Shown here piece after piece: positions 2,935-30,611 of a stretch of 43,784 bases of DNA. This DNA is from Candidatus Micrarchaeota archaeon (GTDB lineage: Archaea; Micrarchaeota; Micrarchaeia; Norongarragalinales; UBA8480). The notes beneath the pieces are model-generated. The model saw nothing but the letters and a program-made list of their open reading frames with translations, was not told where the DNA came from and searched no databases. Position numbers and translations under genes: made by a program. Where the stretch lies: positions 1 to 43,784 of the forward strand of contig JAZDHP010000008.1 of assembly GCA_043805855.1 (NCBI GenBank), written 5' to 3'. Positions within the stretch are counted from its first letter, which is position 1; every line of letters starts with the position of its first letter.

Positions 2935-3192
2935 TGCAACCGCCGGGATCTTCGAGCATTTCGGAAGTTTCTTTTCCCGAAGGCTTTTCTTTTCTAAAGA
3001 AAAGGCTTATCGAACCCGGACCGCAAGCTTTTTTCGGAAAACCGTTTTTTCGTTCAGTTTTCGATCGAGCCTTTTCGCATTTGCTTCTGGGCAAATGACA
3101 TCGCAAATGCGAAGTCAAATGCCGGCCAGGCATTTGCGATTACAAAAAGGCTCGCTTGGAAAGCTCGAATCATACCACTAGACCACGGCTGC
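2935..3192 (-). tRNA. tRNA-Gly(UCC) with two introns: 37/38 (3030-3156, 127 nt) and 59/60 (2949-3008, 60 nt)
   Basis: Acceptor GCAGCCG/CGGTTGC-A; anticodon arm CGAGC TTTCCA|A GCTTG; T arm CCGGG TTCGAT|T CCCGG. BHB helices TTTC/GAAA and TTCG/CGAA. Confidence 0.92.
3076..3141. repeat. Double-hairpin element (family 2), divergent copy nested in the tRNA-Gly anticodon intron
   Basis: gCATTTGC-ttctgg-GCAAATGac ... agtCAAATGCC-ggcca-GGCATTTGcgatt; same frame as copies at 3275, 9623 and 43492. Confidence 0.6.
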
Positions 3193-3244
3193 GCGTCTGT
3201 TAATTTATTTGACAGTATTAAAGATAAAAACTTAAGCTATCACG

Positions 3245-3347
3245 TTTTTCTTTGGGGTTGCAAGACCTTTCTTTGAGCACAAAGCAAAGCTTTGTAACTC
3301 AGACAAAAACTGGCGTTTTTGCTGATTCGTAAAAAGAAAGGGATTAC
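3245..3347. repeat. Free-standing family-1 palindrome carrying a family-2 insert (3275-3327)
   Basis: tttttctttggggttgcaagacctttcttt[insert]...aaaaagaaaggg aligns with the tRNA-Pro intron tttttctttgggactgaaagacttttcttttt...aaaaagaaaagg; insert nearly identical to 9623-9676. Confidence 0.75.
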
Positions 3348-3349
3348 TA

Positions 3350-3524
3350 TGGGGCCACCGAGATTCGAATTCCCTAAAGCGCTTATTCGCCTTTCAATAC
3401 CTAAAGATAAAAATATTTAATTTTTCTTTGGGACTGAAAGACTTTTCTTTTTATAAAAAGAAAAGGCTTTCCTCGGGTCACGGCCACCCCAAGGCCGTAG
3501 GATGCCAGGCTACCCCATGGCCCC
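3350..3524 (-). tRNA. tRNA-Pro(GGG) with 102-nt intron at 53/54 (3370-3471)
   Basis: Acceptor GGGGCCA/TGGCCCC-A; anticodon arm CGGCC TTGGGGT GGCCG; T arm CCGAG|TTCGAAT CTCGG; near-BHB with one mismatch; usual archaeal position downstream of rpoN. Confidence 0.92.
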
Positions 3525-3618
3525 ATTTGCGTATTATTTAAGAGAAAGAGAAGTTTAAAATTCCAAGCGATAGGCTTAAAAAAAAAGCAGGCGTTAGCTT
3601 TGTAAGGTGAACTGTTAA

Positions 3619-3987
3619 ATGGAGAATCTTAGACGAAATTTATCCACAGTAGAAGATGTTAAAAAAGTTGAATTTAGACCTTTACGTTTAGCATTTTCAA
3701 CTACTGGCGAACAGATTAGTCCAGGTTCTAGTGGCGCACAGTTATTATTTGAATTTAAAAGGCTCAGAGAAGCAACTGTAAGAAAAACAGCAGCGAGCCT
3801 TGGACTTAAAACCGAAAGCACTGGCAGACAGGTACTGGTCTTCGATAGGAGACGTATATTCACACTTCAAGTAACTCCCGGATTAGCCAGACCTACAAGA
3901 ATGATAGTCGTTGGGGGAGACAAATACGGAAGACTTCCTGGCGAAGCACAGGAAACTATTCTAAGCTTTTTACGCGGATTCAAATAA
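3619..3987 (+). CDS. Hypothetical protein
   Basis: ATG preceded by GGTGA SD-like motif; fills an intergenic gap; weak resemblance to 14808-15233. Confidence 0.65.
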   Translation: MENLRRNLSTVEDVKKVEFRPLRLAFSTTGEQISPGSSGAQLLFEFKRLREATVRKTAASLGLKTESTGRQVLVFDRRRIFTLQVTPGLARPTRMIVVGGDKYGRLPGEAQETILSFLRGFK

Positions 3988-4011
3988 ACTAAAAACAAAA
4001 AAAATAAGAAA

Positions 4012-4045
4012 TTAGAATCTTTGGAAGTGTTTGATTTCGTCGATT
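4012..4045. repeat. 34-bp direct repeat, copy 1 (duplicate of rpoN 3' end)
   Basis: ttagaatctttggaagtgtttgatttcgtcgatt identical to 5416-5449. Confidence 0.95.
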
Positions 4046-4067
4046 TAGCCCAAAACAGGGTTTTAGT

Positions 4068-4121
4068 TGTGCATAGGGCACTATGCATAAATTTATAAAT
4101 GTGCATAGCGCAATAAGCATA
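4068..4121 (+). promoter_or_regulatory. TATA box flanked by two palindromic operator-like repeats
   Basis: tgtgcatagggcactatgcata (4068-4089), TTTATAAA (4092-4099), tgtgcatagcgcaataagcata (4100-4121). Confidence 0.6.
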
Positions 4122-5419
4122 TGGAAGAACGGCATAGGGCGCTTTTGTTTAGACAGAACCCACAATGGACTGGAGGGAAAATAGATGTGCCGGCGTTCAA
4201 ACGCGATAGCTTCGCTACTCTTAACAAATTCTTAAATTACAAACAAATAATTGCAATTATTGGCCTTCGGCGAGTGGGAAAAACCGTTCTACTTAAGCAA
4301 CTAATGAAGCAACTGAAATTGCCTGAAAACACTTGTTACGTGTCTTTTGACGATAGGGACTTTCAAAAATACGAGACGGCTTGGGAGATAATTAATTACT
4401 TTTTGCAAAAAACAGACGAAACGCAACAGCGGTTTTTGTTTCTTGATGAAATTCAGAAAGTACCTAATTGGCCGGACTTGTTGAAAACAATTTATGACAC
4501 TGAAAAAAACCTTAAAATGTTTGTATCCGGTTCCTCTAGCTTGGAGTTGAAGCAATATAAAGAAACACTTGCTGGAAGAATTCTAACTTTTCACATTCCG
4601 GTTTTTACGTTCAAGGAATTTATAAAATATCACAATTTAGAGTGGAAGATAAAAAAAGAAGATTTGATAAATGAATATGACAAAAAACTAGCGGGTAAAA
4701 AACAAGTTTACCAGGAATTGTTTCAAACCTATTTATTGAAAGGGGCATTTCCTGAGCTATTAGAAATATCTGACGAGGTATTTGTAAAGAAGTATATTTC
4801 GGAGGTTATTGATAAAATAATTGAGGATATTTCTAAGCATATTGAAAACGGCAAACAAGGAGAAATAAGCGATTTAATAGCGCTGTTATGCAAAAGCACC
4901 GGCCGGAATTTTGAACTTAACAACATAGCAGAAGTGCTGAAAATAAACCGCAACACGGCATCTCGCTATGTAAATTTGCTTGAAAAAACTTTTCTTATTA
5001 AAACAAGTTATAACTATACTAAAAGTGTAGCGAAAAAATTCAGAACAAGTAAAAAAAGTTATTCAGCGCATAGTTGCATACCCATTTCAGTATTAAACTA
5101 TCCGTTTAACGCAGTTAGTATTGATGGAAGTGACCTTGGTCATTTGGTTGAAACTGCTATAGCTAGTAATTTAAGTGAATTTTCCTTCTGGAAGCACCAA
5201 AATGATGAAGTGGACTTTGTTATTAACAATTTACCTGTAGAAATAAAGTATCAAACTAACATAAACAAAGGAGACACCGCAGGATTAATAAAATTCACTA
5301 ACAAATTCAAGAAAAAAACTGCATTGCTAGTTACTAAAGATAAAGTTGAAGAACTAAAAATAGGTGAAATAAATATCCTTGCAATTCCAGCGTGGCTTTT
5401 CCTACTTGCCTATACTTAG
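4121..5419 (+). CDS. AAA+ ATPase, AAA_14/DUF4143 family
   Basis: QNP.W N-terminus, Walker A GLRRVGKT, Walker B LFLDEIQ, SGSS, LAGR, G.FP, central HTH-like segment, C-terminal EVDF...PVEIK. Confidence 0.92.
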   Translation: MEERHRALLFRQNPQWTGGKIDVPAFKRDSFATLNKFLNYKQIIAIIGLRRVGKTVLLKQLMKQLKLPENTCYVSFDDRDFQKYETAWEIINYFLQKTDETQQRFLFLDEIQKVPNWPDLLKTIYDTEKNLKMFVSGSSSLELKQYKETLAGRILTFHIPVFTFKEFIKYHNLEWKIKKEDLINEYDKKLAGKKQVYQELFQTYLLKGAFPELLEISDEVFVKKYISEVIDKIIEDISKHIENGKQGEISDLIALLCKSTGRNFELNNIAEVLKINRNTASRYVNLLEKTFLIKTSYNYTKSVAKKFRTSKKSYSAHSCIPISVLNYPFNAVSIDGSDLGHLVETAIASNLSEFSFWKHQNDEVDFVINNLPVEIKYQTNINKGDTAGLIKFTNKFKKKTALLVTKDKVEELKIGEINILAIPAWLFLLAYT

Positions 5420-5449
5420 AATCTTTGGAAGTGTTTGATTTCGTCGATT
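5416..5449. repeat. 34-bp direct repeat, copy 2 (functional rpoN 3' end)
   Basis: Identical to 4012-4045. Confidence 0.95.
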
Positions 5450-5616
5450 AGTGGTACGTAACTTAAAAACATTCTCCTGCAGCAGTACCTCGGGTAGCCG
5501 AGCTCATCGAGTACTTTTGCTGGGTCTTGCTTTTCCATTTGTGTTTTCATGACGAAAGCGTCGATGTCTTCGGCTACTGGTTTTCCGCACGAGAAGCAAC
5601 GAACTGGTATTAACAT
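5416..5616 (-). CDS. rpoN: DNA-directed RNA polymerase subunit N (Rpo10)
   Basis: MLIPVRCFSCGK ... RYCCRRM. Confidence 0.98.
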   Translation of the reverse strand: MLIPVRCFSCGKPVAEDIDAFVMKTQMEKQDPAKVLDELGYPRYCCRRMFLSYVPLIDEIKHFQRF

Positions 5617-5654
5617 TTTTTATTATCCCTCTATTTTCGACATTTTTCAATATC

Positions 5655-6056
5655 CTATCTGTATGATTTTGTGAAACGTGCTCTTGCTTTTGGCCCCTTG
5701 AATTTCTTGGGTTCGACTCTCCTTGGGTCTTCTACGAGGAGTGAGCGGTCAAATGCTAGCATTTGCTGCTTTACAGCGTCAGGCGAACCGTGGATTTGTA
5801 ATAGCCCTTTTGCTACTGCGATGCGGCTTGCTTGTGCTTGTCCGCTGGCTCCGCCGCCGTTTACATTAACATAGATGTCGTAGGCTTCAGGGTCGTCAAA
5901 GAAACGCAGTGGCTCTTGGTAGACATCGCGTAGGAATCTAGAAGTCATTGAACTTACAGCTGTGCCGTTTACAGTGTAAGTGCCTTTGCCTGGGTTGATG
6001 GTAGCGCGTGCAATTGCTTCTTTGCGTTTTCCACGAGTTACGATTGTTTTGTTCAT
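5655..6056 (-). CDS. rps9: 30S ribosomal protein S9 (uS9)
   Basis: GKRKEAIARA, GGG..GQA.A, EPKK..GP.ARA...KSYR; ATG overlaps the L13 stop. Confidence 0.97.
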   Translation of the reverse strand: MNKTIVTRGKRKEAIARATINPGKGTYTVNGTAVSSMTSRFLRDVYQEPLRFFDDPEAYDIYVNVNGGGASGQAQASRIAVAKGLLQIHGSPDAVKQQMLAFDRSLLVEDPRRVEPKKFKGPKARARFTKSYR

Positions 6057-6469
6057 TGTGCTGACCACCCTAATGATTGCGATAATTGCCCGAGGGTAAT
6101 AAAACTTCCCTGTAGAGCTTTTGAATCTTTAACTGGCCTTGTGCCTTTCTTTGGCCCTTCGCCAATGTAAGATTTTATATTACGAAGCGCTTGTTTTCCG
6201 CGTTTTCCAGCTGGGAGCATACCCGAAATAACTTTTCTAAACAAGTAGTCTGGGCGTCGTGGCCATTTCATTGCTTTTTCTGGATTCGCGTGGTTTGTCA
6301 TTTCACGGCGTTTAGTATAAACTCTTACTATTTGCAACGCGTTGCCTGAAATCACAGCTTTTTCAATGTTGTAAATGTTTATCGTGTAACCTCGTAGTGC
6401 GTTTTTGGCACAGTAAGCCGCTAGTCTACCTGAAACGAGGCCGCTTGCATCAATTGTAATTTCTTTCAT
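6053..6469 (-). CDS. rpl13: 50S ribosomal protein L13 (uL13)
   Basis: IDA...GRLA, EKAVISG, PRRPD....ISGMLP. Confidence 0.96.
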   Translation of the reverse strand: MKEITIDASGLVSGRLAAYCAKNALRGYTINIYNIEKAVISGNALQIVRVYTKRREMTNHANPEKAMKWPRRPDYLFRKVISGMLPAGKRGKQALRNIKSYIGEGPKKGTRPVKDSKALQGSFITLGQLSQSLGWSAQ

Positions 6470-6482
6470 TCTTTTGTTCACT

Positions 6483-6833
6483 TTATGTAATTATTAAAAC
6501 GTTTTTGCCGCTTGGGTTAATTTCAACAAGTTGGTTTATTGAAATTACTTTTCCGCCAGCTTGTGTTATTTTTTCGCGCGCTTTTCCAGAAATGGAAAAA
6601 GCAGCGACTGTTGCTTTTGTTCCAGCGCCGTTTGAGAGAACTTTGCCCGGAACTAACAACGTGCCAGTTAGTTTTGTCATTTTTGAAACGTTTACCTCTA
6701 CGCGTTTTCTTGTTGGCCTCAAGAGTAACTCTGCTGCGCGTTTCCATATTGGCGCTTTGTTTTTCTTGCTACTTATTTCAAGAAACGCTATTAATTCAAG
6801 CGTTTTTCTGTTTGTCGGTCCACGTATAACCAT
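6483..6833 (-). CDS. rpl18e: 50S ribosomal protein L18e (eL18)
   Basis: APIWK, VNVSK, VPGKVL, AREKI..AGG. Confidence 0.96.
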   Translation of the reverse strand: MVIRGPTNRKTLELIAFLEISSKKNKAPIWKRAAELLLRPTRKRVEVNVSKMTKLTGTLLVPGKVLSNGAGTKATVAAFSISGKAREKITQAGGKVISINQLVEINPSGKNVLIIT

Positions 6834-6914
6834 TTTTTTCAACTCTAAATTTTATTTTAATTTTCTATTTTTTATTTATTCTTTATTTATTTTTCAACTT
6901 GTTTGAATCTTTAA

Positions 6915-7137
6915 TGCAGAGGGAGAGATTATCATGCTTTTTTTCTTTTTCCAAGGTTTTTCTTTTTTCAAAAAAGAAAAAGCTTTTGAACTCTCGAACT
7001 CCTAAGAGACAGGAACCTCAATCCTGCGCATTTAGTCATAAATACAAATTACAGTTGTTCTGTTATTGGTTTATCGCCAACTTGAGGACAACTTGTTCAT
7101 CTTTGTTTTTCTATTGACCTGGCTTTGCTACCTCTGC
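6915..7137 (-). tRNA. tRNA-Leu(GAG) with introns at 21/22 (7032-7113, 82 nt) and 59/60 (6929-6984, 56 nt)
   Basis: Acceptor GCAGAGG/CCTCTGC-A; anticodon arm CAGGA TTGAGGT TCCTG; BHB GGTC/GACT at the D-loop, relaxed motif at the T-loop; usual position between rpoD and L18e. Confidence 0.92.
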
Positions 7138-7165
7138 ATTTCACAGCGGTTAAAAGAATGCTATC

Positions 7166-7220
7166 TTTCAGTAACTTTTCTTTTGGCGACTGAAAGCACC
7201 TTTTCGCAAAAGGGGCTTTC
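7166..7220. repeat. Free-standing family-1 palindrome directly after the rpoD stop
   Basis: ctttcagt...ttttcttttggcgactgaaagcaccttttcgcaaaaggggctttc matches the architecture of the Pro, Ser and Leu(CAG) introns. Confidence 0.7.
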
Positions 7221-7222
7221 TT

Positions 7223-7924
7223 TTATAACTCTTTTTTCAACTCGTCGGCTTTTTCCCGTAGAATTGAAACTGCTTTTTGTAATATTACGGCTGGCTCTTC
7301 GCCGTTGTAACTTTCAACGTAAAAAATGTACTCTCCTTCTTTTGGAAGCACGTTAACGTTTTCTGAAATTTGGCCAATGTCAAGTTTTTCCGGGTTAGTT
7401 ACTTTGCCGTTTTCGTCAACTGCACCTGTTGGAATTGTTTTCAACGCTTCTACCTTTGAACCTTTTATCTTTAAGTCAGGGTAGTGCGCATAGCTTGCAA
7501 AGCTGTTTTGAAACTTCGCGTGTTGCTTTGCAGTGCCAATTACCGCAGTTGCTTCGAAGCGTAAGTTTTGGTTTTCTGAAAGTGCAATTATTGGAATGTG
7601 AAGCAAAGCGGGTTTTATTTTGTCGTCTGTTGATTTTAAGTCTTTCGAATAAACTATCGTCGGTCCAGTTGCCTGTAGGCTAAAAGTTACCTTCACGTCG
7701 GGAGATGCTTTGTCATCGTTTGTTAATGGTATTAACGCAAGGCGAAGTGCAAGGTATTCGTTGAACATTGCTGAGTTGTTTTCAAAAAAGGTAACTTCGT
7801 CAATTGCAAAGTTTGGAATTGAACTGTTTATTATTCTTCGAAGTGCGTTGAGCATAGGGACAGAACAGTCCTTAACGTGGTAGTAAACGCCGCTTTTGGT
7901 TTTTCTAATTTGTTCGAACTTCAT
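7223..7924 (-). CDS. rpoD: DNA-directed RNA polymerase subunit D (Rpo3)
   Basis: NALRR, AIDEV.F.EN.S, RLALIPL, G..K.HAKFQ, FYVES. Confidence 0.96.
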   Translation of the reverse strand: MKFEQIRKTKSGVYYHVKDCSVPMLNALRRIINSSIPNFAIDEVTFFENNSAMFNEYLALRLALIPLTNDDKASPDVKVTFSLQATGPTIVYSKDLKSTDDKIKPALLHIPIIALSENQNLRFEATAVIGTAKQHAKFQNSFASYAHYPDLKIKGSKVEALKTIPTGAVDENGKVTNPEKLDIGQISENVNVLPKEGEYIFYVESYNGEEPAVILQKAVSILREKADELKKEL

Positions 7925-7930
7925 GGTTGT

Positions 7931-8359
7931 CTACACCCTACGGCCTCTTTTTCCGCCTGGCCTCTTTGTAGTGTCAGTTGGAATTGGAGTAACATCTTCA
8001 ATTTTACCAATGCGTAAACCTGAACGCGCTAATGCTCTTATAGCTGCTTGTGCGCCTACACCTGGAGTTTTAGAACCGTGGCCGCCCGGTGCGCGTACAC
8101 GTACGATTACACCCACTACGCCTCTTTCTTTTGCTTTTTCGCTTGCTTTGAAAGCAGCTTGCATTGCCGCGTATGGCCCGCCTTCTTCCCGGTCGTTTTT
8201 AACAATCATTCCACCGCTTGCGGTTGTGATTGTTTCAGCTCCGCTGATGTCCGTAATTGTAATTATAGTGTTGTTTTTCGAAGAGTAAACGTGCGCAATG
8301 CCCCATTTACCTTCTTTTGGTGCAACTACATTTCTTGGTGTAAATCTACTTTCAGCCAA
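7931..8359 (-). CDS. rps11: 30S ribosomal protein S11 (uS11)
   Basis: [34 protein letters not shown]. Confidence 0.98.
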
Positions 8360-8858
8360 CGGTGTTCACCTGTTGATTTTTCAATTCAATAACATGATTA
8401 TACCAGTTAATTTCATTTTCTTCACGGAATTTAACTAGATAAGACGGCGCAGTTACCCTCACTCCATTTATTGCAATGTGACCATGGGTAACAAATTGCC
8501 TGCTTTGTAAAATTGTACTTGCCATTCTCTTGCGCGTAACTATAGTTTGTAACCTTCTCTCAAGAATACTGCGAGTGTCAAGTGCAAGAACATCATCAAG
8601 AGTTGCATTAGCAACTAAGAATGACTTAATGCGGTTTAGTAAAAGTTCAGTGCGTTGCTCGATGTTTTTTCCTTTTCCAGATTGTAAACGGCGAGCTTCA
8701 CGGCGGATTTTACGTAGAATTGTTTTCATTCTCCATAACTCGCGCATGTTTTTCAAGCCGTATTCGTCGACTAGCTTACGTTCTTCTTTAATGCGGCTAG
8801 CGTCCCATTGTCTTTTAGGCGCTTCGAATTGCTTCCTAAGTTTCACTGGACTTCCCAT
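8352..8858 (-). CDS. rps4: 30S ribosomal protein S4 (uS4)
   Basis: MGSP start, [25 protein letters not shown]. Confidence 0.97.
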
Positions 8859-8859
8859 A

Positions 8860-9501
8860 TTACTTCTTTGCCTCGTCCTTTGTTCCAGCAGATGCCGGTG
8901 CAATTGATTTGCGTACGACTCCAACAGTTAAACCGCTTCTTCCAGTTGTACGGTTGTGTTGACCGCGTACTTTTTGTCCAATTGAATGTCTCCAGCCAAT
9001 CCACGAGCGAGTGTCTTTCTCGCGTTGGATATCTTGCTTTGTTTGGAAAATTAAATCAGTACCAAGTAAATGTTTGTCTTCGCCAGTGTCAATATCTTTT
9101 CTCCGGTTAAGCATGAAAGCAGGAATTCCAGCGGTTTTTGGATTCTTTATAATGTCTTCAATGCTGTTCAACTGTTCTTCAGTTAAATCTCCCACAAGTG
9201 CTTTTGGGGATATTGAAAGTTTAAGTAGAATTGCGTTTGAAAGAGCGTTGCCAAGCGTGTGGCCAATTCCCTTTACTCTGCGTAGAGCTTCTGATAAATA
9301 GTAGTGGCCGTCCATGTCTTTTCCAACTAGACGAATTACTCCGCGGAAGTCTCCCGAAGCAGATGGCCTTTTCTTTAAAACAGATTGATTTTGTGAAGGC
9401 GCAGCTAAGACTTTTTTCTTGTCCTTATTGTGATCCTTTGAAGGTTTAACGTCTTTGCCGTCTTTTGCTTTGTCGTTCTTTTCCAAAACTTTTTTCACCA
9501 A
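8860..9501 (-). CDS. rps13: 30S ribosomal protein S13 (uS13) with Lys-rich N-terminal extension
   Basis: LNRRKD..TG...HL, G.RH..G.KVRGQ..RTTGR. Confidence 0.96.
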   Translation of the reverse strand: MVKKVLEKNDKAKDGKDVKPSKDHNKDKKKVLAAPSQNQSVLKKRPSASGDFRGVIRLVGKDMDGHYYLSEALRRVKGIGHTLGNALSNAILLKLSISPKALVGDLTEEQLNSIEDIIKNPKTAGIPAFMLNRRKDIDTGEDKHLLGTDLIFQTKQDIQREKDTRSWIGWRHSIGQKVRGQHNRTTGRSGLTVGVVRKSIAPASAGTKDEAKK

Positions 9502-9547
9502 CGTGCGGACCGCGAACTAAAAGTTCGCAACCTCGCTTAATTACGAG

Positions 9548-9848
9548 CGCCGGGACTGAGAAATTCGGAAAACCCTTCAGTTCCTATGCGCTATAAAATA
9601 ACAATTTAACCCTTTTCTTTTTGAGCACAAACCACTGGTTTGTGACTCAGACAAAAACCTTTGGTTTTTGCTGATTGGGTTGAAAGACTTTTTTCTTTTC
9701 GCAAAAGAAAAAAGGGTTTCGTTCGAACTCAGGAGCCCTTACGGGCACAAGCTTTCTGCGAGCGTGAGGTCTACAGTTTTACTGTCACCATAACAAGCAC
9801 TCGTCTGGATAATTCCAGGCCTGCGCATTACCACTCTGCCATCCCGGC
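9548..9848 (-). tRNA. tRNA-Ser(GGA) with introns at 37/38 (9754-9812, 59 nt) and 59/60 (9562-9721, 160 nt)
   Basis: Acceptor GCCGGGA/TCCCGGC-G; anticodon arm CAGGC CTGGAA|A GCTTG; long variable arm; T arm CTGAG TTCGAA|T CTCAG with BHB helix TTCG/CGAA; usual position upstream of S13. Confidence 0.92.
9623..9676. repeat. Double-hairpin element (family 2) inside the tRNA-Ser T-loop intron
   Basis: gagcacaaaccactggtttgtgactcagacaaaaacctttggtttttgctgatt; differs from 3275-3327 almost only at the hairpin apices. Confidence 0.85.
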
Positions 9849-22644: not shown

Positions 22645-22645
22645 T

Positions 22646-22960: not shown

Positions 22961-22999
22961 AATTGTAAACGCTAACCTTTTTTTGTAATTTATTTGGCC

Positions 23000-23292: not shown

Positions 23293-24114
23293 TTAAACTG
23301 ATTGTAGTGCTTCGCCAGTTTTTTCCGGCGCGGGAGTTGCTTCAATTTTTTCTTCAAAGTCCGTCTCTTTTTCAACATGTGCAGCTTTTTCAACTTTTGG
23401 CTTTTTTGCCCTTGGCGCAGTAGTAGCTTTTTTGTGCGGTGCACGTTTTTTCTTTTCAGCAGCTTTTTCCTCGATTTTTGCATCTGTTTTTGAAGTTTCA
23501 ACAACAACCGGAATTGCTAATTTACTTAGATCAACGCGATCTGAAAATACAGTATCTGGAGACGCGATTTTTACAGTTATTCCAACGATTCCTGCTTTTA
23601 AGTTTGCTACAAAGTGTCCAACGTGCATTTTCTTTGACTCTTCGCCTGACTTCTTTAGATAACCAGCTCGGATTGTTGTTGACTTGGCTTTGCCACCTTT
23701 TCCAACTAATTTACCAGCTGCTCTAATTTCAGCGCCAATTGCACCTGCGGACATAATTTCTCGCAAAGCAAAACGCATTGCAGATTTAGCGTTGCCTTTA
23801 ATTTCAAGTTGTTTGCCGATTTTTTCAGCAACTAATTTAGCGTCAAGTGAAGGTTGCATTACTTCAATTACTTCAATTTGCGGGTTTTCAATGCCATATT
23901 GCTTTTGCAACGCGTCTGAAATGTCCTTTATAGTTTGACCTTTTTTGCCAACCACTAAACCTGGCCTGCGTACTGAAATTGCTATTCTAGTTGCAATTGG
24001 AGTTTTTTGTATTTCAATTGTGGATACTCCCGCGTTTGCTAATTCACGTTGGAGGAATTCCTTTATACTAAAGTCTGCAATTGCTTTTTGAATGAATTTC
24101 CTTTCACTGGCCAT
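23293..24114 (-). CDS. rps3: 30S ribosomal protein S3 (uS3) with charged C-terminal tail
   Basis: KH domain RPG.V.GKKG, GA.G.EI...GKL, GYLKKSG. Confidence 0.97.
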   Translation of the reverse strand: MASERKFIQKAIADFSIKEFLQRELANAGVSTIEIQKTPIATRIAISVRRPGLVVGKKGQTIKDISDALQKQYGIENPQIEVIEVMQPSLDAKLVAEKIGKQLEIKGNAKSAMRFALREIMSAGAIGAEIRAAGKLVGKGGKAKSTTIRAGYLKKSGEESKKMHVGHFVANLKAGIVGITVKIASPDTVFSDRVDLSKLAIPVVVETSKTDAKIEEKAAEKKKRAPHKKATTAPRAKKPKVEKAAHVEKETDFEEKIEATPAPEKTGEALQSV

Positions 24115-24131
24115 TTTACAAATACTTACCC

Positions 24132-24821
24132 CTATTTAATTTCAATTTTTTCAGTTGTTTTGCTTTCAGTTGGTTTTTCAACTGTTTGTTCAACTGCCTT
24201 TTCAACTTTCTTTTCAACTGTCTTTTCGCTTACTGTAGCTTTTTCGCTTTTTGCGATTGCGGTTTTTGTTTCGACTTTTTTATCAGTTGTCTTTACATTT
24301 TTTGCTTCGCTTTTCTTTTTGCCTTTTGCACTTTGTGCTAGCGTTAACTCCGCCCAGCAAGTTACATATTTACTCGCGTATGATTGTTTACCGTACCCAA
24401 TTATGACACCGCCGGCCCAATACCTTCGATAGCGCATTAACTTGTTTTGCTTGTGGCTAGAAGCTGCTTTTATGTAAAGTGATTCTTTGTCAAACCCTTT
24501 GAACTCAGCGTTGGCAATTGCATTTTTTAACATATCCATTACAATTTTCGCTTCTTTCTTTGGATAGCGCCCCTTTTTGCCACCGAGTTCACTTCGGTGT
24601 CCAATGCCTTTTGCAAATCTCTTGTAGGGAATTGCTTTTTTCATTGAAATTGCTTCTTCAAGTATATGAATTGCGGTTTTAACTGGCTTGCGCATTATAG
24701 CAGCTAGCACTTGGCTCATATCTTTATATGATGCGTTGACGTCGTGCACTTGCGAACGTGCAACTGCCTTTTCATCTGCAGCTTTATGTGAATATTTGTA
24801 TAAACCCATTTTTTTCAACAT
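24132..24821 (-). CDS. rpl22: 50S ribosomal protein L22 (uL22) with K/E/T-rich C-terminal tail
   Basis: P.KRF...GH, GRYPKK.A, NA.ANAE.KG. Confidence 0.95.
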   Translation of the reverse strand: MLKKMGLYKYSHKAADEKAVARSQVHDVNASYKDMSQVLAAIMRKPVKTAIHILEEAISMKKAIPYKRFAKGIGHRSELGGKKGRYPKKEAKIVMDMLKNAIANAEFKGFDKESLYIKAASSHKQNKLMRYRRYWAGGVIIGYGKQSYASKYVTCWAELTLAQSAKGKKKSEAKNVKTTDKKVETKTAIAKSEKATVSEKTVEKKVEKAVEQTVEKPTESKTTEKIEIK

Positions 24822-24833
24822 CCTTTTTTCTTT

Positions 24834-25223
24834 CTACCTGAGTTCAACTGACTTACTTCCGCGAGTTGCGCCAATTCCAGGGCCAGAGTGTTTGACTAAC
24901 TTGGTTGTAATCGCGTATTCGCCTAGCCTATGGCCAAGCATTGGTAACTGCGGTACAACTTTAACCCAATCTTTTCCATTGTACACCATAAATTCAAATT
25001 CGAGCATTTCTGGTAAGATAATCATTTCACGCAAGTGCGTTTTCACAATTTTTTTGCCTTTTGCCTTTTTCAATTTTAAACTGTCAATGAAGTTTCTAAA
25101 CTTTACACTCATTCTCAGCATTGTCCTGCGCTGGTGTGACGGTATAATTTTGATAAAGTCAGCAAATGACATTGCCTTTACTTCGTCCATAGTTTTTCCG
25201 TGAAAAGTGATTTTCTTTACCAT
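24834..25223 (-). CDS. rps19: 30S ribosomal protein S19 (uS19)
   Basis: KTHLREMIILPEM, M.GH.LGE, GIGATR.S. Confidence 0.98.
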   Translation of the reverse strand: MVKKITFHGKTMDEVKAMSFADFIKIIPSHQRRTMLRMSVKFRNFIDSLKLKKAKGKKIVKTHLREMIILPEMLEFEFMVYNGKDWVKVVPQLPMLGHRLGEYAITTKLVKHSGPGIGATRGSKSVELR

Positions 25224-25951
25224 TAGGTTGTTCCTCCTCGTCTCCTTCCTGTTCTCCTTGCTGCGATGTGCCCGACTTTACGTCCAGGCGGTGTAGAGCG
25301 TGAAACTGCGGTTGGTTTTCCAAAAGACTTTCCACCAAACGGGTGGTTGTAAGCAGACATTGCGCTTCTGCGCACTTTTGGCCATTCTCTACCAACTGCA
25401 AGCATTGCTCGACCTTTGTTGCCAGCTTTCTTAAATGGTTTTTCTTTCTTTCCCCCGCCGCTTGCAACTCCAATTGTAGCAAGACAAGTACCCAACAGGG
25501 TTTTTACCTGGCGCGAAGCTAAACGGATTTCAACTGTGTTTTTATCCTCGTCTTTAGTTGCAATGTAAGCAACTGCACCGCAAGTGCGGGCGAGTTTTCC
25601 ACCGTCGCCTGGCCTTAGTTCAACATTGTAAACAGGCGTTCCTTCTGCGAGTTGTGAAATGGGAACTACGTTGCCAAGTGCAACTTTTGAAGCGTGTATT
25701 GAAATTTCTTGACCTAAGTGCAACCCTTCAGGCGCGAGGTTTAGGAACTTTTCGCCGTTTTCTAGAAGCACCTCTATTAATAACGGACCGTGCCCCGGAT
25801 CGTCAATTAATTGAACAACTTGGCCGCGCATTGGCGTGGTTAATTTAGTAACAACATAAGGATATTTGATTCTTGCAACATAACGATGGGAAGGGCTGCT
25901 GTATGCTGGCGATCCCTTTCCTTTTCTCTGTGCAATGATTGGTTTACCCAT
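25223..25951 (-). CDS. rpl2: 50S ribosomal protein L2 (uL2)
   Basis: MGK....Q.KGKG, PGDGG.LAR, WP.VR..AM....HP.GG, PPGRKVG.IAARRTG. Confidence 0.98.
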   Translation of the reverse strand: MGKPIIAQRKGKGSPAYSSPSHRYVARIKYPYVVTKLTTPMRGQVVQLIDDPGHGPLLIEVLLENGEKFLNLAPEGLHLGQEISIHASKVALGNVVPISQLAEGTPVYNVELRPGDGGKLARTCGAVAYIATKDEDKNTVEIRLASRQVKTLLGTCLATIGVASGGGKKEKPFKKAGNKGRAMLAVGREWPKVRRSAMSAYNHPFGGKSFGKPTAVSRSTPPGRKVGHIAARRTGRRRGGTT

Positions 25952-26011
25952 TTTTTGTACACTTCCTCAAAAATCAAATTTTATTTATTTTATTCAAATT
26001 ACTCAATTTAC

Positions 26012-26257
26012 CTAAACTAATTTAAGCTTTGCAGCAAGGTCAGCTGCTTTGCCTTTTTCTTTAAATGTAATAACTGCTTTTTTCATGCCGTTTGGCGAAG
26101 TCAACGTGTTGACGCTTTTTACTTTAAAGCCGTATTCCTTTTCAATTTCTTCTTTTATACTTTTCTTCGTATCAGTTGGTTCAATTTGAAAAGTAATTGC
26201 ATTGCGCAATTCAATCCCGCCTATTGCTTTTTCAGTTGTTATTGGTTTGAGAATCAT
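26012..26257 (-). CDS. rpl23: 50S ribosomal protein L23 (uL23)
   Basis: P..TEKA, VNTL..P.G.KKA. Confidence 0.96.
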   Translation of the reverse strand: MILKPITTEKAIGGIELRNAITFQIEPTDTKKSIKEEIEKEYGFKVKSVNTLTSPNGMKKAVITFKEKGKAADLAAKLKLV

Positions 26258-26277
26258 ATTTTAGTAATCACACTTTT

Positions 26278-27075
26278 TTAGTAATACAGCGCTTGTTCGC
26301 TTAATTTTTTCACCGCGCCTTGAGTCCATAAAACTAGTCTGCCTGCAACTCCACCCGGAGCAAGCAAATTTGCATTTAGCTTGTCAACGCTTACAACATT
26401 AACGCCAGATAAATTACGAGCTGCTTTTGAAACATTGCACGCTGTTGAAGTAACTATCAAGACGCTTCTTGGAACGCGTTTACCGCGGCCGCGAAGTCTC
26501 TTTACTCCACTAGTGCGTTTAGTTGCCTTTGCTACACGTTGTAAATCTTTTGAAAAGCCAAGTGCAATTAATGTTTTTAGCACTTCTTTTGCTTTTGAAA
26601 GTTTTTCAAAATCGTCAGTTACAATTACTGGAAAAGCGCATTGCACGTCATGCTTTGCAGTTACTAGCGTTGCGCTAATTGAAGCTGCGATTGCGCTGCG
26701 AATTGCCTTGTTTCTTTCTTTTAGGTTAATTTTTTCAATTATATTCTTTTGTGGTTTTGGAGGGTGTGCGCGTCTTCCCTTTACAGCGTGCGGTACTCTC
26801 AATACCCTGCCTGATTTTCCACCTGGAATCTTTTCCCTTGGTAAACGTGAGCGACCGGTGTTGATAGTTTGTCTCCATGCGTGTCTTCGGCCATAGTATT
26901 CTGCAGTTGTCTTTAAACCAGCTCGCGGGTCACATCCTTTTGGCTGGAAAAGTAAAGAAGCATGTGCGTGGAACGCCCTCCTGATTAAGTCTACGCGAAC
27001 ATCTTCGCTAAATTGCTTTGGTAATTCAATTTGAACTGTTTGCTTGCCTTGTAAATCTAGAATATTTGCTTTCAT
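26278..27075 (-). CDS. rpl4: 50S ribosomal protein L4 (uL4)
   Basis: R.DLIRRA, GRRAHPPK, LAPGG..GRL..WT. Confidence 0.98.
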   Translation of the reverse strand: MKANILDLQGKQTVQIELPKQFSEDVRVDLIRRAFHAHASLLFQPKGCDPRAGLKTTAEYYGRRHAWRQTINTGRSRLPREKIPGGKSGRVLRVPHAVKGRRAHPPKPQKNIIEKINLKERNKAIRSAIAASISATLVTAKHDVQCAFPVIVTDDFEKLSKAKEVLKTLIALGFSKDLQRVAKATKRTSGVKRLRGRGKRVPRSVLIVTSTACNVSKAARNLSGVNVVSVDKLNANLLAPGGVAGRLVLWTQGAVKKLSEQALYY

Positions 27076-27087
27076 GTTTTTGTATCA

Positions 27088-28008
27088 TCACACTTGTATT
27101 GAAATTATATTTGGTATTTTTGCAGGTTTTTTGTCAACTGCGCGGCGTAGGCGGATCAAACGTTTTACTGGCCCAGGGATACTGCCTTGCAATAAAATAT
27201 AAGTACCTTTTACTTCGCCGTAGTGTTTAAACGCGGGCAACTTGTTAGTTGAAATTTTCAAAATGCGTTTGTTAAAATCAGTTCTCCTTTGAAAGCCCAT
27301 TTGACCGGGCCTTGGTACAGAGAAAAACACTCTTGCTTGGGTTTCTGCGCCAAGAGTTCCACCTTTACGACGGTGTGCAGTTGCCTTGTGAGGGTTAAGC
27401 GCAACGCCGAACCGCTTGACAAGCCCTTGCCAACCTTTTCCAGTTGTCACAGCAATTACGTCGGTAAATTCTCCTTCTTTGAAAACATCGCTAAATGCAA
27501 CTTCTTTGCCGAGCAAACTCTTTGCGAGCTCTAGCTGTTCTTCTTTTGTACCAGCTAATGGAATTTCCATAACTTCAGGCGTTTTCTTTAATGAAATCTT
27601 TTGCGGTTGCGTAAGCGCGATTAAACGTAGTTGTTCAAATTCTTTTATTACTTCAAAGCCTTTTGTTTTCTTTGCAGGCGTTAAAGAACGTCGCGCTTCT
27701 TTTGGAGCATTAGTTGCAGTTACTTGCATTATTTGTTTTAACCCTAGCGGGGTTTTTGCTAAAACATTAACTGCGTAGATAAACATTGGCGGTACTTCGA
27801 CAATTGTAACTGGCTTTACAACTTCCTGGCCTTTTAACGGCGATTCAGAATCTTCAATCATTACTAAGTCCATCATACCTGCTTTGTAACCGGCGAAGCT
27901 CGAGAGCCCTTTTACATTAATCCAGTTCCTCAAGCGAGGTACAAGGCGTTTTGCACGTGCCCTGTGCCAAAAAGATAAACTTCCGCGTCTAGTCGACTTC
28001 TTACCCAT
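27088..28008 (-). CDS. rpl3: 50S ribosomal protein L3 (uL3)
   Basis: RRGSL.F, GYKAGM, GKG.QG.VKRFG, GQMGF..RT..NKR, GSIPGP.KR. Confidence 0.98.
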   Translation of the reverse strand: MGKKSTRRGSLSFWHRARAKRLVPRLRNWINVKGLSSFAGYKAGMMDLVMIEDSESPLKGQEVVKPVTIVEVPPMFIYAVNVLAKTPLGLKQIMQVTATNAPKEARRSLTPAKKTKGFEVIKEFEQLRLIALTQPQKISLKKTPEVMEIPLAGTKEEQLELAKSLLGKEVAFSDVFKEGEFTDVIAVTTGKGWQGLVKRFGVALNPHKATAHRRKGGTLGAETQARVFFSVPRPGQMGFQRRTDFNKRILKISTNKLPAFKHYGEVKGTYILLQGSIPGPVKRLIRLRRAVDKKPAKIPNIISIQV

Positions 28009-28056
28009 AAAATAAAATCACGTTTCAAAATATTAAAAATAATTTAAGCTAATTCT

Positions 28057-28209
28057 TTAAACTGCTTTGACTGTGCGAGCTACTGGCGGCGTCTTTTTAA
28101 ATAGAGATTTGCCCCCACAATAAGTACACCGGACACTACCGGCGCTTAGAGCCGAACGAAAGTCTTTGTCATTAAACTCTCTACCACAAGATGCACAAAC
28201 ATAAGACAT
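28057..28209 (-). CDS. rpoP: DNA-directed RNA polymerase subunit P (Rpo12; not in ORF track)
   Basis: Manual translation MSYVCASCGREF...VRCTYCGGKSLFKKTPPVARTVKAV: Zn ribbon plus the typical L.K..P...R.VKA tail. Confidence 0.9.
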   Translation of the reverse strand: MSYVCASCGREFNDKDFRSALSAGSVRCTYCGGKSLFKKTPPVARTVKAV

Positions 28210-28223
28210 AATATATAGATCCC

Positions 28224-28541
28224 TTATCGAAACGCTAAGCTGTAACCAGTGAACATCTGGAGCAACAAGCCACCTACCAAAATGGCGATGACGAATAGCG
28301 TTATACTTCCGAGCACTTCTACCCTCAAGGTATGGCGTGCTACTAAAAGACCGAGTAAAATAATTGCGAAAATTGTTATTAAATCTATGCCCTCAGTGAA
28401 AATTAGCCACGGAAGCAAAATTGTGAGCAAAAACCCAAGTGCAAGCGCTGGTCCAATGCCAATTCTAACTCTAATAACTTGTCCCGCTAGTAGGATTCCA
28501 ATTGTGAAAATTAGAAACGGAATCAAGAAGCTATCCAACAA
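28224..28541 (-). CDS. Small multi-pass membrane protein, unknown function
   Basis: About four hydrophobic helices; co-oriented with rpoP. Confidence 0.65.
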   Translation of the reverse strand: MLDSFLIPFLIFTIGILLAGQVIRVRIGIGPALALGFLLTILLPWLIFTEGIDLITIFAIILLGLLVARHTLRVEVLGSITLFVIAILVGGLLLQMFTGYSLAFR

Positions 28542-28625
28542 TAAGTTAAAAACCGTACAAACACACCCATTCCAAGTTACTACTCATAAGTTAAACAATA
28601 GGAAATAGAGTGGTTAAAAAGGTTG

Positions 28626-28937
28626 CTATTTTAACGCGTTAAGTTTTTTCACAAGCTGTTCAAACAACTCTTGTTTCTTTTGCTTTGATAAAACAAATAA
28701 CTTTTTCTTCACGGCGTTTTCGGAAATAGTCATTATATAATTAGTTTTTATGACGCTGTCAACAATTGCGCCGTCTTTTTTAGTAAGTGAAATCCCTTTC
28801 ATTTGTTGGTTGCTAGTTATTCCGGCAACTATAATGTTTCCAAACTCTTCAAACAAAACAACTGCGGGCCTAGCTTTAACTTCAAAAGAATCAGTGAACT
28901 GCACTGAACACAACAACACGTCACCAGAGCTATACAT
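28626..28937 (-). CDS. PemK/MazF-family toxin (endoribonuclease)
   Basis: GDV.L....FTD....K.RPAVVL, IIVA.ITS, S.IK. Confidence 0.85.
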   Translation of the reverse strand: MYSSGDVLLCSVQFTDSFEVKARPAVVLFEEFGNIIVAGITSNQQMKGISLTKKDGAIVDSVIKTNYIMTISENAVKKKLFVLSKQKKQELFEQLVKKLNALK

Positions 28938-29157
28938 TTTCCCACACCTCGTCCGCAGGATTATCCCAAAGTTCTTTCATTTTCTCTTGTTGTATTTTGT
29001 GCAAGAAATCATCGTATTGATTGCGTTCTTTTGCGCGTTTAAACAACGTAATCATTTTCAACAAAAGCGAATTATACGTTTGCTCAGGATACTCTCTAAG
29101 TTGTTTCAACTCATCCAAAACATCTTTATTTATTTGAATCGTAGTAATGTTCACCAT
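28930..29157 (-). CDS. Putative antitoxin (ribbon-helix-helix-like)
   Basis: TTIQI...V.D.LK......TY..LL, acidic C-terminus ELWDNPADEVWE; overlaps the toxin start. Confidence 0.75.
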   Translation of the reverse strand: MVNITTIQINKDVLDELKQLREYPEQTYNSLLLKMITLFKRAKERNQYDDFLHKIQQEKMKELWDNPADEVWENV

Positions 29158-29239
29158 ATATAGTCTATAGAATACTATAGTAACTTATATTTATTTCTTG
29201 CTACGACTAACAAAAAAGAAGAATAAAATAAAGACAGCA

Positions 29240-29257
29240 CAAAAAGTGGACGAAAAG
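29240..29257. repeat. 18-bp direct repeat, copy 1
   Basis: caaaaagtggacgaaaag identical to 30004-30021. Confidence 0.85.
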
Positions 29258-29321
29258 GCATGAGCCAAGTCAAGACACTAGGCTACGAAAAGAATATAAA
29301 TAAGAATTTCTTATAATCTTA

Positions 29322-29573
29322 TTGATGAAAGGTATGGAAAATTTTATTGGTAAAGTAACCTCTCGCGGCCAAATTACGCTCCCTCAGCAGTTACGCGAGG
29401 AAAAAGGTATCACGGAAAACGACTACGTAGTAATGCGCAAAGTTGGCAAGTATATTGTTATTGGAAAAGTTGAGGCGCGGCTTGATGAAATAACCGCTGC
29501 GTTTGAAGAAGAGGCAAAAGCAAATAAAATAACAAAGAAGAAGTTGTTAGCTGAACTCAGCCAAAGCAAGTAG
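29322..29573 (+). CDS. AbrB/MazE/SpoVT-family DNA-binding protein (antitoxin-like); start probably 29334
   Basis: KVTSRGQITLP..LRE..GI...D.V. Confidence 0.88.
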   Translation: MMKGMENFIGKVTSRGQITLPQQLREEKGITENDYVVMRKVGKYIVIGKVEARLDEITAAFEEEAKANKITKKKLLAELSQSK

Positions 29574-29957
29574 CTGCCGGCTAGTAACTATTTCAATTTC
29601 ACAGTACCTTTTCAAGGTCGTTAAATCTTTGTCTCCGCTCACGAGATATTTGCAATTCGAAAATAAAGCTGCTGCTAAAACGTGTTGATCTTTTTTATCA
29701 CGAACTACTTGTAAAGAAATTAGTTCCAAGTAACTAGACCTCGGAATAACTTGAATTCTAGAAGAAACTATAAACTCATTGAACAACGCAGAACTCCTTG
29801 GAAACTTACGCACTAGTACTGCAGTCACTTCATTAATTACGTCTTCTGAAGTTATCAACTCTGTTTTTTCCTTCGAGGCTAATTTCAGCACTTCGTGTTC
29901 GAGACCACGAAAAACTATTCCTGAAATCAAAGTATTAGCGTCGACAAAAACTCTCAT
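29547..29957 (-). CDS. PIN-domain toxin (VapC / PIN_3-like)
   Basis: MRVFVDANTLISG, E, RD..D.HVLAAA, LVSGDKDL. Confidence 0.9.
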   Translation of the reverse strand: MRVFVDANTLISGIVFRGLEHEVLKLASKEKTELITSEDVINEVTAVLVRKFPRSSALFNEFIVSSRIQVIPRSSYLELISLQVVRDKKDQHVLAAALFSNCKYLVSGDKDLTTLKRYCEIEIVTSRQLLALAEFS

Positions 29958-30003
29958 TTAACTCGAGGCTATTGCTCGCGGTTAACTTAAATCAATCACC
30001 GCG

Positions 30004-30021
30004 CAAAAAGTGGACGAAAAG
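30004..30021. repeat. 18-bp direct repeat, copy 2
   Basis: Identical to 29240-29257. Confidence 0.85.
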
Positions 30022-30030
30022 CTAAACTAA

Positions 30031-30441
30031 TCAAACCTTGCCGTTAGCTTCAATTTTTATATCGCTTACGAGTTTTTGCAGCGAAGTATTGAGTTCGTTT
30101 ATTTTTTTGTCAACTGTTTGCAGTTGTATTTTGAGCTCGTCGATGCTTTTCTTTTGAATTGTAGGCGTTTTTCCAGCGTCGATTGCAATTTCCGCTTCGC
30201 TATATAGCTCGCGAGCTTGTTTTTGTAAAAGTGGCAACTGTAGCGAAAGTAAGTGCACGTCGAGAGTCATTGCGAATATTTTCTTGTTAATTGTTTCAGA
30301 GTAGTAATGTGCTTCGCTGATGTGATGACAAAACTCTCGCACTGAGTCAAAAAGCTCCAATGTGTTGTCAAGCGCTTTGAAGCTAAAACTAAACTCCTTT
30401 GCAAAAAAAGTGTTTGTCTTTTCTTCTATTTTTTCATCCAT
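30031..30441 (-). CDS. Hypothetical coiled-coil protein
   Basis: ORF from MDEKIEE; the longer N-terminus in the ORF track runs through tRNA-Thr. Confidence 0.7.
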   Translation of the reverse strand: MDEKIEEKTNTFFAKEFSFSFKALDNTLELFDSVREFCHHISEAHYYSETINKKIFAMTLDVHLLSLQLPLLQKQARELYSEAEIAIDAGKTPTIQKKSIDELKIQLQTVDKKINELNTSLQKLVSDIKIEANGKV

Positions 30442-30472
30442 ATTTATCAATACCGCATCATAAAAAAAGAAA

Positions 30473-30611
30473 AGCCCCCGACGAGAATAGTTCAAACTTT
30501 TTCTTTTTCCAAGGTTTCTTTTCCCAAGGCTTTTCTTTTCTAAAGAAAAGGCTTTTGAACTCGCGACCTTTTGCTTACCATGCAAACGCTCTACCACTGA
30601 GCTACAGAGGC
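30473..30611 (-). tRNA. tRNA-Thr(GGU) with about 67-nt intron at 59/60 (30487-30553)
   Basis: Acceptor GCCTCTG/CGGGGGC; D arm GCTC/GAGC; anticodon arm TTTGC ATGGTAA GCAAA; T arm GCGAG TTCAAA|T CTCGT; helix TTCA/TGAA with enlarged 3' bulge. Confidence 0.9.

Follow-up and report, generated by a model that had tools for sequence, protein, structure and literature searches.

The DNA analysed here, positions 1 to 43,784 of contig JAZDHP010000008.1 from a Candidatus Micrarchaeota archaeon (assembly GCA_043805855.1) and hereafter called the window, raises the question of why two unrelated tRNA genes lying 27 kb apart, those for tRNA-Gly(UCC) and tRNA-Thr(GGU), carry a nearly identical segment inside the introns that interrupt their T loops. 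An earlier note on this DNA had proposed a recent intron transfer or gene conversion between tRNA genes, with the bulge-helix-bulge (BHB) motif adapted to the host. The reading favoured here, to which we give a probability of about 75%, is broader: both segments would be copies of the conserved core of one BHB intron family that is spreading among T loops, and the two genes would share the segment because at least 24 tRNA genes bear versions of one hairpin-containing T-loop intron. We propose that the family spread and was homogenised at the DNA level between tRNA genes, the most likely route being gene conversion over short tracts, or template switching, with the nearly universal sequence of the T arm as the seed.

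The source genome (G000) comprises 1,031,631 bp in 67 contigs with 41% G+C and is 92% complete; its contigs are given as C followed by a number. It was compared with three genomes of the same genus, G001, G002 and G003 (71%, 91% and 62% complete), and with G026, G015 and G030 from other families. Twenty-three T-loop introns were aligned (A1), and a second alignment with its covariance model (A2 and R1) was built from 19 T-loop introns, those of Thr, C31, C22 and C53b being left out because their 3' parts align poorly. The two loci contain the following features.

2935..3192, minus strand: tRNA-Gly(UCC) gene, three exons and two introns, discriminator A at 2935
2949..3008, minus strand: T-loop intron of tRNA-Gly(UCC), 60 nt, at 59/60 (direct reading, R1 match, fold, covariation)
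2967..3008, minus strand: core module, Gly copy, a hairpin (AAG-C-CUUUUCUUU / AAAGAAAAG-C-CUU) followed by GGGAAAAGAAA
3030..3156, minus strand: anticodon-loop intron of tRNA-Gly(UCC), about 127 nt, at 37/38 (edge ambiguous by one A)
30473..30611, minus strand: tRNA-Thr(GGU) gene with one intron (Rfam tRNA match, ARAGORN after intron removal, intron-less orthologs)
30488..30554, minus strand: T-loop intron of tRNA-Thr(GGU), 67 nt, most likely at 58/59 (30487-30553 under a 59/60 reading)
30514..30554, minus strand: core module, Thr copy, 41 nt (blastn, repeat search, cross-taxon matches)

The shared segments are the first 42 (Gly) and the first 41 (Thr) bases of the respective introns. Their near-identity with a single indel, as the earlier note had described it, was confirmed by blastn against the whole 1,031,631-bp genome (41/42, one gap, E 1.1e-13), and a repeat search of the window returned the pair as repeat family D9. 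The whole introns match R1 at 2943-3019 (Gly, 78.4 bits) and at 30481-30564 (Thr, 41.3 bits). The acceptor strands of the Gly(UCC) gene pair when read by eye, and orthologs of this gene are present in G001-G003. After removal of the T-loop insert, ARAGORN called Thr(ggt), His(gtg), Ala(ggc) and Ala(cgc) and, when an anticodon-loop intron was additionally allowed, Gly(tcc). At least seven tRNA genes lie in the window, each of them interrupted and on the minus strand; default ARAGORN found none of these and Rfam half of one, namely the part of the Thr(GGU) gene at 30550-30611 (35 bits).

The earlier note had described the segment in two genes, to which it is not confined. Searching the source genome with the Gly 42-mer by blastn also retrieved C53:5753-5794 at 41/42 and copies on C26 and C45 at 38/41; an nhmmer profile detected 35 core copies at E<=0.001, and R1 gave 102 matches at E<=1, 43 of them at E<0.001. 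Twenty full-length T-loop introns score at least 65 bits, and with four weaker ones (C22:4539, C31:45 = C20:14419, Thr at 41 bits and C53:16147) the number of distinct T-loop introns rises to 24. As judged by these profile matches, the Gly/Thr pair is not special, one family of T-loop introns occupying at least 24 tRNA genes of the genome. The intron-bearing genes whose identity is trusted are Gly(UCC), Gly(CCC), Ala(GGC), Ala(CGC), His(GUG), Thr(GGU), Tyr(GUA), Lys(UUU), Leu(GAG), Leu(CAG), Leu(UAA), Ile(GAU), Val(UAC), Val(GAC) and Glu(CUC)-like; the gene at C53:5742 was identified as Ala(CGC) by ARAGORN and by its G3:U70 pair. An intron at least 80% identical resides in a different tRNA gene for 19 of the 24, the best pairs reaching 95% (C58/C6) and 92% (Gly(UCC)/Ala(CGC)). 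Core copies number about 40 altogether, and some are not in tRNA genes. The remaining R1 matches lie at other tRNA positions (D loop, 53/54 and anticodon loop), and the module copies outside introns are found immediately 3' of two tRNA-Ala genes, within the rRNA operon and in spacers between protein-coding genes, for example at C40:20719-20774 upstream of a gene resembling that of elongation factor 2.

Several anticodons of multi-intron genes were assigned by eye and via orthologs. Brute-force single deletions followed by ARAGORN -i were unambiguous only in genes without a further intron and gave conflicting anticodons in multi-intron genes. A whole-genome strict BHB scan with ARAGORN on single and double deletions recovered few genes and made many false calls, and a loose regular expression for the T loop produced 325 matches that were mostly spurious, so that an acceptor-stem filter was used instead. 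Two further observations concern the distribution of such introns. One tRNA(CAU) T-loop intron appears twice, at C31:45-112 and at C20:14419-14486, each time at a contig end, where the repeat family breaks the assembly. Moreover, a second intron family, of the type AAAAGGCC...GGCCTTTT, recurs in the D loops of the genes at C19:13339, C21:13037, C22:4539, C45:18155 and C6:15413; intron families therefore seem to be position-specific here.

Orthologous tRNA genes of sister genomes, to which the earlier note had pointed as a check, bear out a young intron at the Thr locus. The Thr(GGU) T-loop intron is absent in all five orthologs examined, two from the same genus (G002 and G003) and three from other families (G026, G015 and G030), and the loci of G002 and G003 share flanking gene content with the window (68% identity over 195 aa; 39-66% identity). 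This distribution supports a recent, lineage-specific gain of the Thr(GGU) intron. Likewise, 8 of the 24 intron-bearing genes of G000 have uninterrupted T loops in G002, namely Thr(GGU), His, Tyr, Ile(GAU), Val(UAC), Val(GAC), Gly(CCC) and Glu(CUC)-like, and the intron-less orthologs align across the junction. G002 yields 11 tRNA matches above the Rfam cut-off, as compared to five in G000. At E<=1e-9, R1 gave 20 matches in G000, 12 in G002, five in G003 and three in G001, none in eight genomes of the family's other genera and one to four in five genomes of other families; under stricter filters, 9 of the 68 genomes of the order were positive at this threshold.

The Gly(UCC) T-loop intron, in turn, is present in all four genomes of the genus. 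Its identity to the Ala(CGC) intron of the same genome amounts to 91.8% in G000, 95% in G003 and 68.7% in G002, and the introns of G000 are 53-79% (Gly) and 69-74% (Ala) identical to their orthologs in the other genomes. Both genes have the T arm CCGGG-TTCGAT..T-CCCGG in common. The Gly(UCC) copy would be the older one, shared by the whole genus and re-homogenised with the Ala(CGC) copy, a case of concerted evolution. Of nine ortholog groups, only that of the C60:2889 intron has the G000 copy closest to its own ortholog (92%); in the other eight, a paralog or a non-orthologous intron from another genome is closer. The Gly(CCC) gene of G000 provides a mosaic: its acceptor stem is identical to that of G002 Gly(CCC) (14/14), and its body agrees in 53/57 positions with G000 Gly(UCC) as compared to 46/56 with its own ortholog, the Gly(CCC) and Gly(UCC) bodies of G002 agreeing in 40/57. 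The T-loop intron of Gly(CCC) is present in G000 and absent in G002, and this mosaic looks like a conversion tract that brought the intron. A separate observation was made at the intron-less Thr(GGU) loci of G003 (L005) and G002 (L006), in which the terminal 16-18 nt of the gene, starting at the T loop, recur about 55 nt further downstream, past a small hairpin; the repeat looks like an integration scar, or possibly like a first step towards a T-loop intron.

All 23 aligned introns follow a common plan. The T stem, TTCRA and one to four bases precede a hairpin of 13-15 bp with a pyrimidine arm CUUUUCUUU(U) and a purine arm (A)AAAGAAAAG, usually a C-C mismatch and then an outer stem of 3-4 bp. 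A second purine tract, GGAAAAGAAA(A), repeats the purine arm and is followed by a variable stretch, sometimes with a small hairpin with compensating stems, and the 3' end consists of YGAA, two bases, T60 and the T stem. The intron starts just past T-loop nt 58 or 59, and YGAA pairs with T-loop nt 54-57, after which a 3-nt bulge precedes the T stem. The complementarity described in the earlier note, CGAA opposite TTCG in Gly and TGAA opposite TTCA in Thr, is present in the sequence, and its proposal that the BHB is adapted to the host is borne out by covariation across the family: tRNA nt 57 and its intron partner form A-U in nine, G-C in seven, G-U in two and another combination in one of the 19 introns aligned in A2, with compensatory changes in the T stem and the nt 57 pair. 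Pairing in A2 is realised in 98.3% of cells as compared to 86.5% in shuffles (0/500 shuffles reach the observed value) and drops to at most 74% when the partners are slid.

For the Gly T-loop intron, the predicted motif is a textbook hBHBh' (helix-bulge-helix-bulge-helix) structure that passes the strict BHB scan, as do 18 further family members: a T stem, the 4-bp helix UUCG:CGAA, the bulges AU|A and GA|U and the intron helix AGC:GCU. The folds of Gly (z -2.5) and Ala(CGC) (z -4.0) are more stable than those of shuffles, and in both the T stem, the T-loop helix and a 3' bulge of 3 nt are recognisable. The Thr intron departs from this picture in having a relaxed BHB with a 5-nt 3' bulge and an extra tandem CCUUGG-AAAAGAAA unit; its fold (z -0.53) has no clear excess of stability over shuffles and prefers an 8-bp helix, AGUUCAAA:UUUGAACU. 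The earlier note had placed both introns at 59/60, which applies to Gly and probably not to Thr. TTCAATT is the T loop of all five intron-less orthologs of Thr(GGU), the G000 gene yields it only with the exon joint TTCAA|TT, and GUUC:GAAC is the only 4-bp helix that places both Thr cuts two bases 3' of the helix, a position at 59/60 requiring a cut four bases into the 3' bulge. Because the ortholog loop and the BHB rule are reconciled only by this helix, the Thr intron is most likely inserted, and would be cut, at 58/59; the same junction arrangement recurs in the tRNA(CAU) intron at C31:45-112.

The splicing endonuclease of G000 is a single 388-aa open reading frame (ORF) with two PF01974 matches that aligns over residues 9-388 with the three-unit epsilon2 enzyme EndA of ARMAN-2 (PDB 4fz2, E 9.1e-131). 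By this similarity the genome encodes a full-length counterpart of the epsilon2 splicing endonuclease of ARMAN-2, a type that can cut non-canonical or relaxed motifs, in keeping with its placement in the Micrarchaeota. In the pre-tRNA, the T-loop insert would form a BHB or relaxed BHB, the epsilon2-type endonuclease would cut each strand two bases 3' of the 4-bp helix, and a ligase would join the exons after excision. A search for sequencing runs with the locus listed two groundwater DNA runs with small shares and no RNA run.

Further tRNA genes of the window, and one site outside them, carry the family or variants of its hairpin module.

about 1-90, minus strand: tRNA-Leu(UAG), interrupted and cut by the window start (window reading)
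556..607, minus strand: module copy outside tRNA genes (R1 540-608, E 0.012)
3350..3524, minus strand: tRNA-Pro(GGG), intron at about 53/54 with a variant module (R1 3402-3475, E 1.9e-4)
6929..6984, minus strand: T-loop intron of the family in tRNA-Leu(GAG) (R1 6923-6995, 67.7 bits)
9562..9721, minus strand: T-loop intron (59/60) of tRNA-Ser(GGA), 160 nt (strict BHB scan)
41770..41832, minus strand: T-loop intron of the family in tRNA-Leu(CAG) (R1 41764-41843, 65.6 bits)

The tRNA-Leu(GAG) gene (6915-7137) has a D-loop intron besides the T-loop one, the tRNA-Leu(CAG) gene (41756-42077, anticodon by eye) several further introns, and the 160-nt intron of the tRNA-Ser(GGA) gene (9548-9848) encloses a nested insert as well as a variant hairpin module. 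A 39-nt stretch in this Ser intron (9620-9658) is 87% alike to one in the 3' trailer of tRNA-Pro(GGG) (3272-3310; repeat family D10), and trailer and intron sequences therefore exchange. The anticodon-loop intron of tRNA-Gly(UCC), about 127 nt long in G000, measures 56 nt in G002 and G003 and is absent in G001; the extra ~70 nt are a nested insert with GCAAATGC/GCATTTGC palindromes in the intron's hairpin loop. The module copy at 556-607 sits in the spacer between ORF 608-1330 (minus strand) and ORF 155-571 (minus strand), and its variant CCATGCC...GGCCAGGCGTGGCC also fills the T-loop intron at C22:4539-4618. Another copy, at C10:28954-29027 on the opposite strand, is no more than a few bases away from the splicing endonuclease gene's stop codon.

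Outside the source genome, an exact pattern of 27 specified bases, covering both hairpin arms and the tail, was found in more than 117 stretches of species-representative genomes. Among the matches listed (80), 57 are archaeal and 23 bacterial by record title, the archaeal ones including 13 from Methanophagales/ANME-1 (anaerobic methanotrophic archaea), 10 from Aenigmatarchaeota, nine from Micrarchaeota, five from Nanoarchaeia and others, the bacterial ones six from Saccharibacteria/Patescibacteria, six from Clostridia-type bacteria, three from Geopsychrobacteraceae, two each from Omnitrophota, Margulisiibacteriota and Bdellovibrionales, and others. A T-loop motif adjoins 19 of 121 among the matches listed. 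The three outer base pairs are paired in 89, 98 and 89 of 104 distinct copies as compared to ~0.43 in shuffles, with all four Watson-Crick types occurring, and the position beside the fixed stem is C-C in 54 of the 104. The pattern gave no match in 2.9 million viral contigs, on the strength of which chance was excluded as the source of the likeness. Furthermore, no Rfam 15 family covers the module (20 cross-taxon loci returned tRNAs and sub-threshold low-complexity matches only, and the window one tRNA match), and a description of it was not found in the literature searched.

In the ANME-1 (Methanophagales) records L066, L079, L086, L113, L128 and others, the module usually begins at T(A/C)AACC, which is often the TAA stop codon of the upstream ORF and also part of the covarying outer stem. 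Among the matches listed, 35 of 113 cross-taxon copies follow the end of a sense ORF and 37 of 113 precede the end of a convergent one. This distribution is suggestive of a location at gene 3' ends and not decisive; a role as terminator was considered and rejected, as a terminator within a tRNA gene would be harmful. Formation of a triplex was considered as well, the purine tail mirroring the purine arm; the linker (0-4 nt past the 4-5-bp outer stem) is apparently not long enough for the tail to double back, which leaves the triplex as a speculative option. In the fold of the C31 intron, the tail replaces the purine arm in pairing and is also its perfect mirror, so that the module could be a two-state or triplex-prone structure that favours recombination or serves as the binding site of a conserved factor. 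We tentatively consider, while regarding it as rather doubtful, that the ~40-nt core is an undescribed cross-domain structured module of transcribed spacers in DPANN archaea, ANME-1 and several bacterial phyla, composed of a hairpin with an invariant CUUUUCUUU/AAAGAAAAG stem, an outer stem that covaries and a repeated purine tail, and that its insertion or conversion into T loops begets new tRNA introns in Micrarchaeota.

Several other explanations of the Gly/Thr likeness have to be weighed. If the introns were old, vertically inherited and kept alike by strong purifying selection on some function of the module as RNA or DNA, with no recent copying, the near-identity of the core in other DPANN phyla would be expected (39/40 without gaps between the Thr core and a record titled Candidatus Iainarchaeum, 42/43 between the Gly core and a Nanoarchaeia record), as would the occurrence of the 27-base pattern in both domains and the covariation of the outer stem. 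Such constraint is nevertheless an unlikely sole cause, as it leaves unexplained the presence/absence differences between same-genus orthologs and the mosaic Gly(CCC) gene, and the likeness within the genome extends past the core into the variable 3' part, as in Gly(UCC)/Ala(CGC). A recent transfer that directly involved the Gly(UCC) and Thr(GGU) genes themselves, the explanation of the earlier note taken literally, draws on the 41/42 core identity and on the recent gain of the Thr intron. This identity does not date a transfer, because the core is equally matched in other DPANN phyla, and the rest of the two introns points elsewhere: the closest relative of the Gly intron is that of Ala(CGC), the Thr intron over its full length reaches no more than 71% likeness to any other copy in the genome, and its 5' junction (TTCAAAAGC..., 58/59) and 3' half resemble the C31:45 tRNA(CAU) intron and not Gly. 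The core thus appears to be conserved, or exchanged, far beyond this genome, and Gly is not established as the donor of Thr; a direct event between the two is improbable, and what stood of the earlier proposal is the movement of the family between tRNA genes and the recency of the Thr gain.

A possible, if doubtful, alternative is that the module is an autonomous or trans-mobilised miniature element, comparable to repetitive extragenic palindromic (REP) sequences or miniature inverted-repeat transposable elements (MITEs), which inserts into any transcribed spacer, its T-loop copies surviving as they can be spliced and the introns being by-products. The copies outside tRNA genes, the variant common to the spacer at 556-607 and a T-loop intron, and the small share of cross-taxon matches that adjoin a T loop agree with it. 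On the other hand, neither terminal inverted repeats nor target-site duplications were seen at the junctions, the 92%-complete genome gave no match to RVT_1 or Y1_Tnp and a TnpB-like match of only 18.6 bits, below the cut-off, the viral contigs were negative, and the T-loop copies share junction parts too, which argues that whole introns were copied. As BHB introns are excised as stable RNAs, the family might also have spread by reverse splicing of an excised intron into another pre-tRNA, reverse transcription and recombination into the gene, a route that would account for insertion at exactly the spliceable positions; we consider it very improbable given that no reverse transcriptase was found in the 92%-complete genome and that the mosaic exon tracts point to conversion at the DNA level. 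Least credible is an assembly artefact, the hazard which the earlier note itself had raised, or a Thr(GGU) gene dead from disruption by the repeat. The family does break assemblies, as at C31/C20, and the Thr BHB is irregular, but both loci lie inside the 43.8-kb contig with unique flanks, introns of the same design occupy orthologous genes in the three other genomes of the genus, and among contigs of a related population (groundwater DNA, ~90% identity to the window, the tRNA not cleanly bridged) one covers 30483-30569 with seven differences; moreover, Thr(GGU) occurs once in the genome and its exons fold into a normal cloverleaf.

Spread of one family by copying between tRNA genes accounts for these patterns best, and several points weigh against it. 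Gain and loss were polarised by parsimony alone, with outgroups read for Thr only, and G001 and G003 are just 71% and 62% complete. The introns are ~60 nt long and have a constrained core in common, so that all similarities are inflated and trees are weak. The proposed spread derives from patterns of presence, absence and identity, the molecular route being deduced from them; several anticodons of multi-intron genes were assigned by eye, brute-force ARAGORN being ambiguous; and the predicted Thr motif is irregular in its 5-nt bulge, competing helix and low z value. Finally, since the module also occurs outside tRNA genes and in bacteria, some copies may be insertions of a separate element and not products of conversion from tRNA to tRNA.

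REP sequences, with the bacterial interspersed mosaic elements (BIMEs), and MITEs are interspersed hairpin repeats of prokaryotes. The module resembles them as a short, structured multi-copy element of transcribed spacers with a covarying stem, and differs in that no cognate transposase was found in G000 and no terminal inverted repeats were seen at the junctions, in that the inner stem and tail are conserved across domains and in its residence in spliced introns. Candidatus Micrarchaeum acidiphilum ARMAN-2, from the same phylum-level group, likewise has T-arm introns at 59/60 and 53/54, multi-intron genes and a three-unit endonuclease cutting relaxed motifs, the enzyme whose structure (4fz2) is matched by the G000 homolog and for which cleavage of a relaxed 59/60 motif has been demonstrated in vitro (Fujishima et al., 2011; PMC3239211). 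Its introns are short and individual (13 nt in pre-tRNA-Cys), no shared intron sequence being reported in the accessible part of that paper, whereas at least 24 introns of G000 are built on one ~60-nt template.

In Thermoproteales, near-identical introns in different tRNA genes were taken as evidence of intron transposition at the DNA level by an unknown mechanism (PMC4090602), and 28.3% of 272 introns belong to families at >=80% identity across tRNA types (bioRxiv 10.64898/2026.10.13.758758). As in G000, similar introns occur across isoacceptors, the relationships of introns conflict with those of the tRNAs and a DNA-level route was inferred (PMC4090602). G000 differs in its phylum and endonuclease type, in the dominance of the T loop, in the proportion of introns with a paralog at >=80% (19/24, although the measures differ) and in the occurrence of the core outside tRNA genes, in other phyla and in bacteria. 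Asgard archaea resemble G000 in their heavily interrupted tRNA genes, which standard finders miss, and in gains at spliceable sites; copying between tRNA genes was detected there in just 1.5% of 1,062, whereas it is the main signal in G000 (bioRxiv 10.64898/2026.10.13.758758). According to the same census, the route by which archaeal tRNA introns reach new sites "remains open". Together with its genus, G000 offers an unusually clear system for this problem, with one template at the same position in two dozen tRNA genes and gains datable between same-genus genomes; the datable gains, the homogenised gene pairs and the mosaic tRNA gene make the hypothesis of DNA-level copying directly testable. 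Default finders miss nearly all tRNA genes here, so that annotations of such genomes are badly incomplete, and a conserved module common to DPANN archaea and bacteria that has no Rfam family calls for explanation. Two additions were not found in the literature searched: clear concerted evolution seen by comparing genomes of one genus, and a core module that also occurs beyond introns and beyond archaea. Taken together, G000 is a case of the known transposition of tRNA introns in another phylum, in a more extreme and position-specific form.

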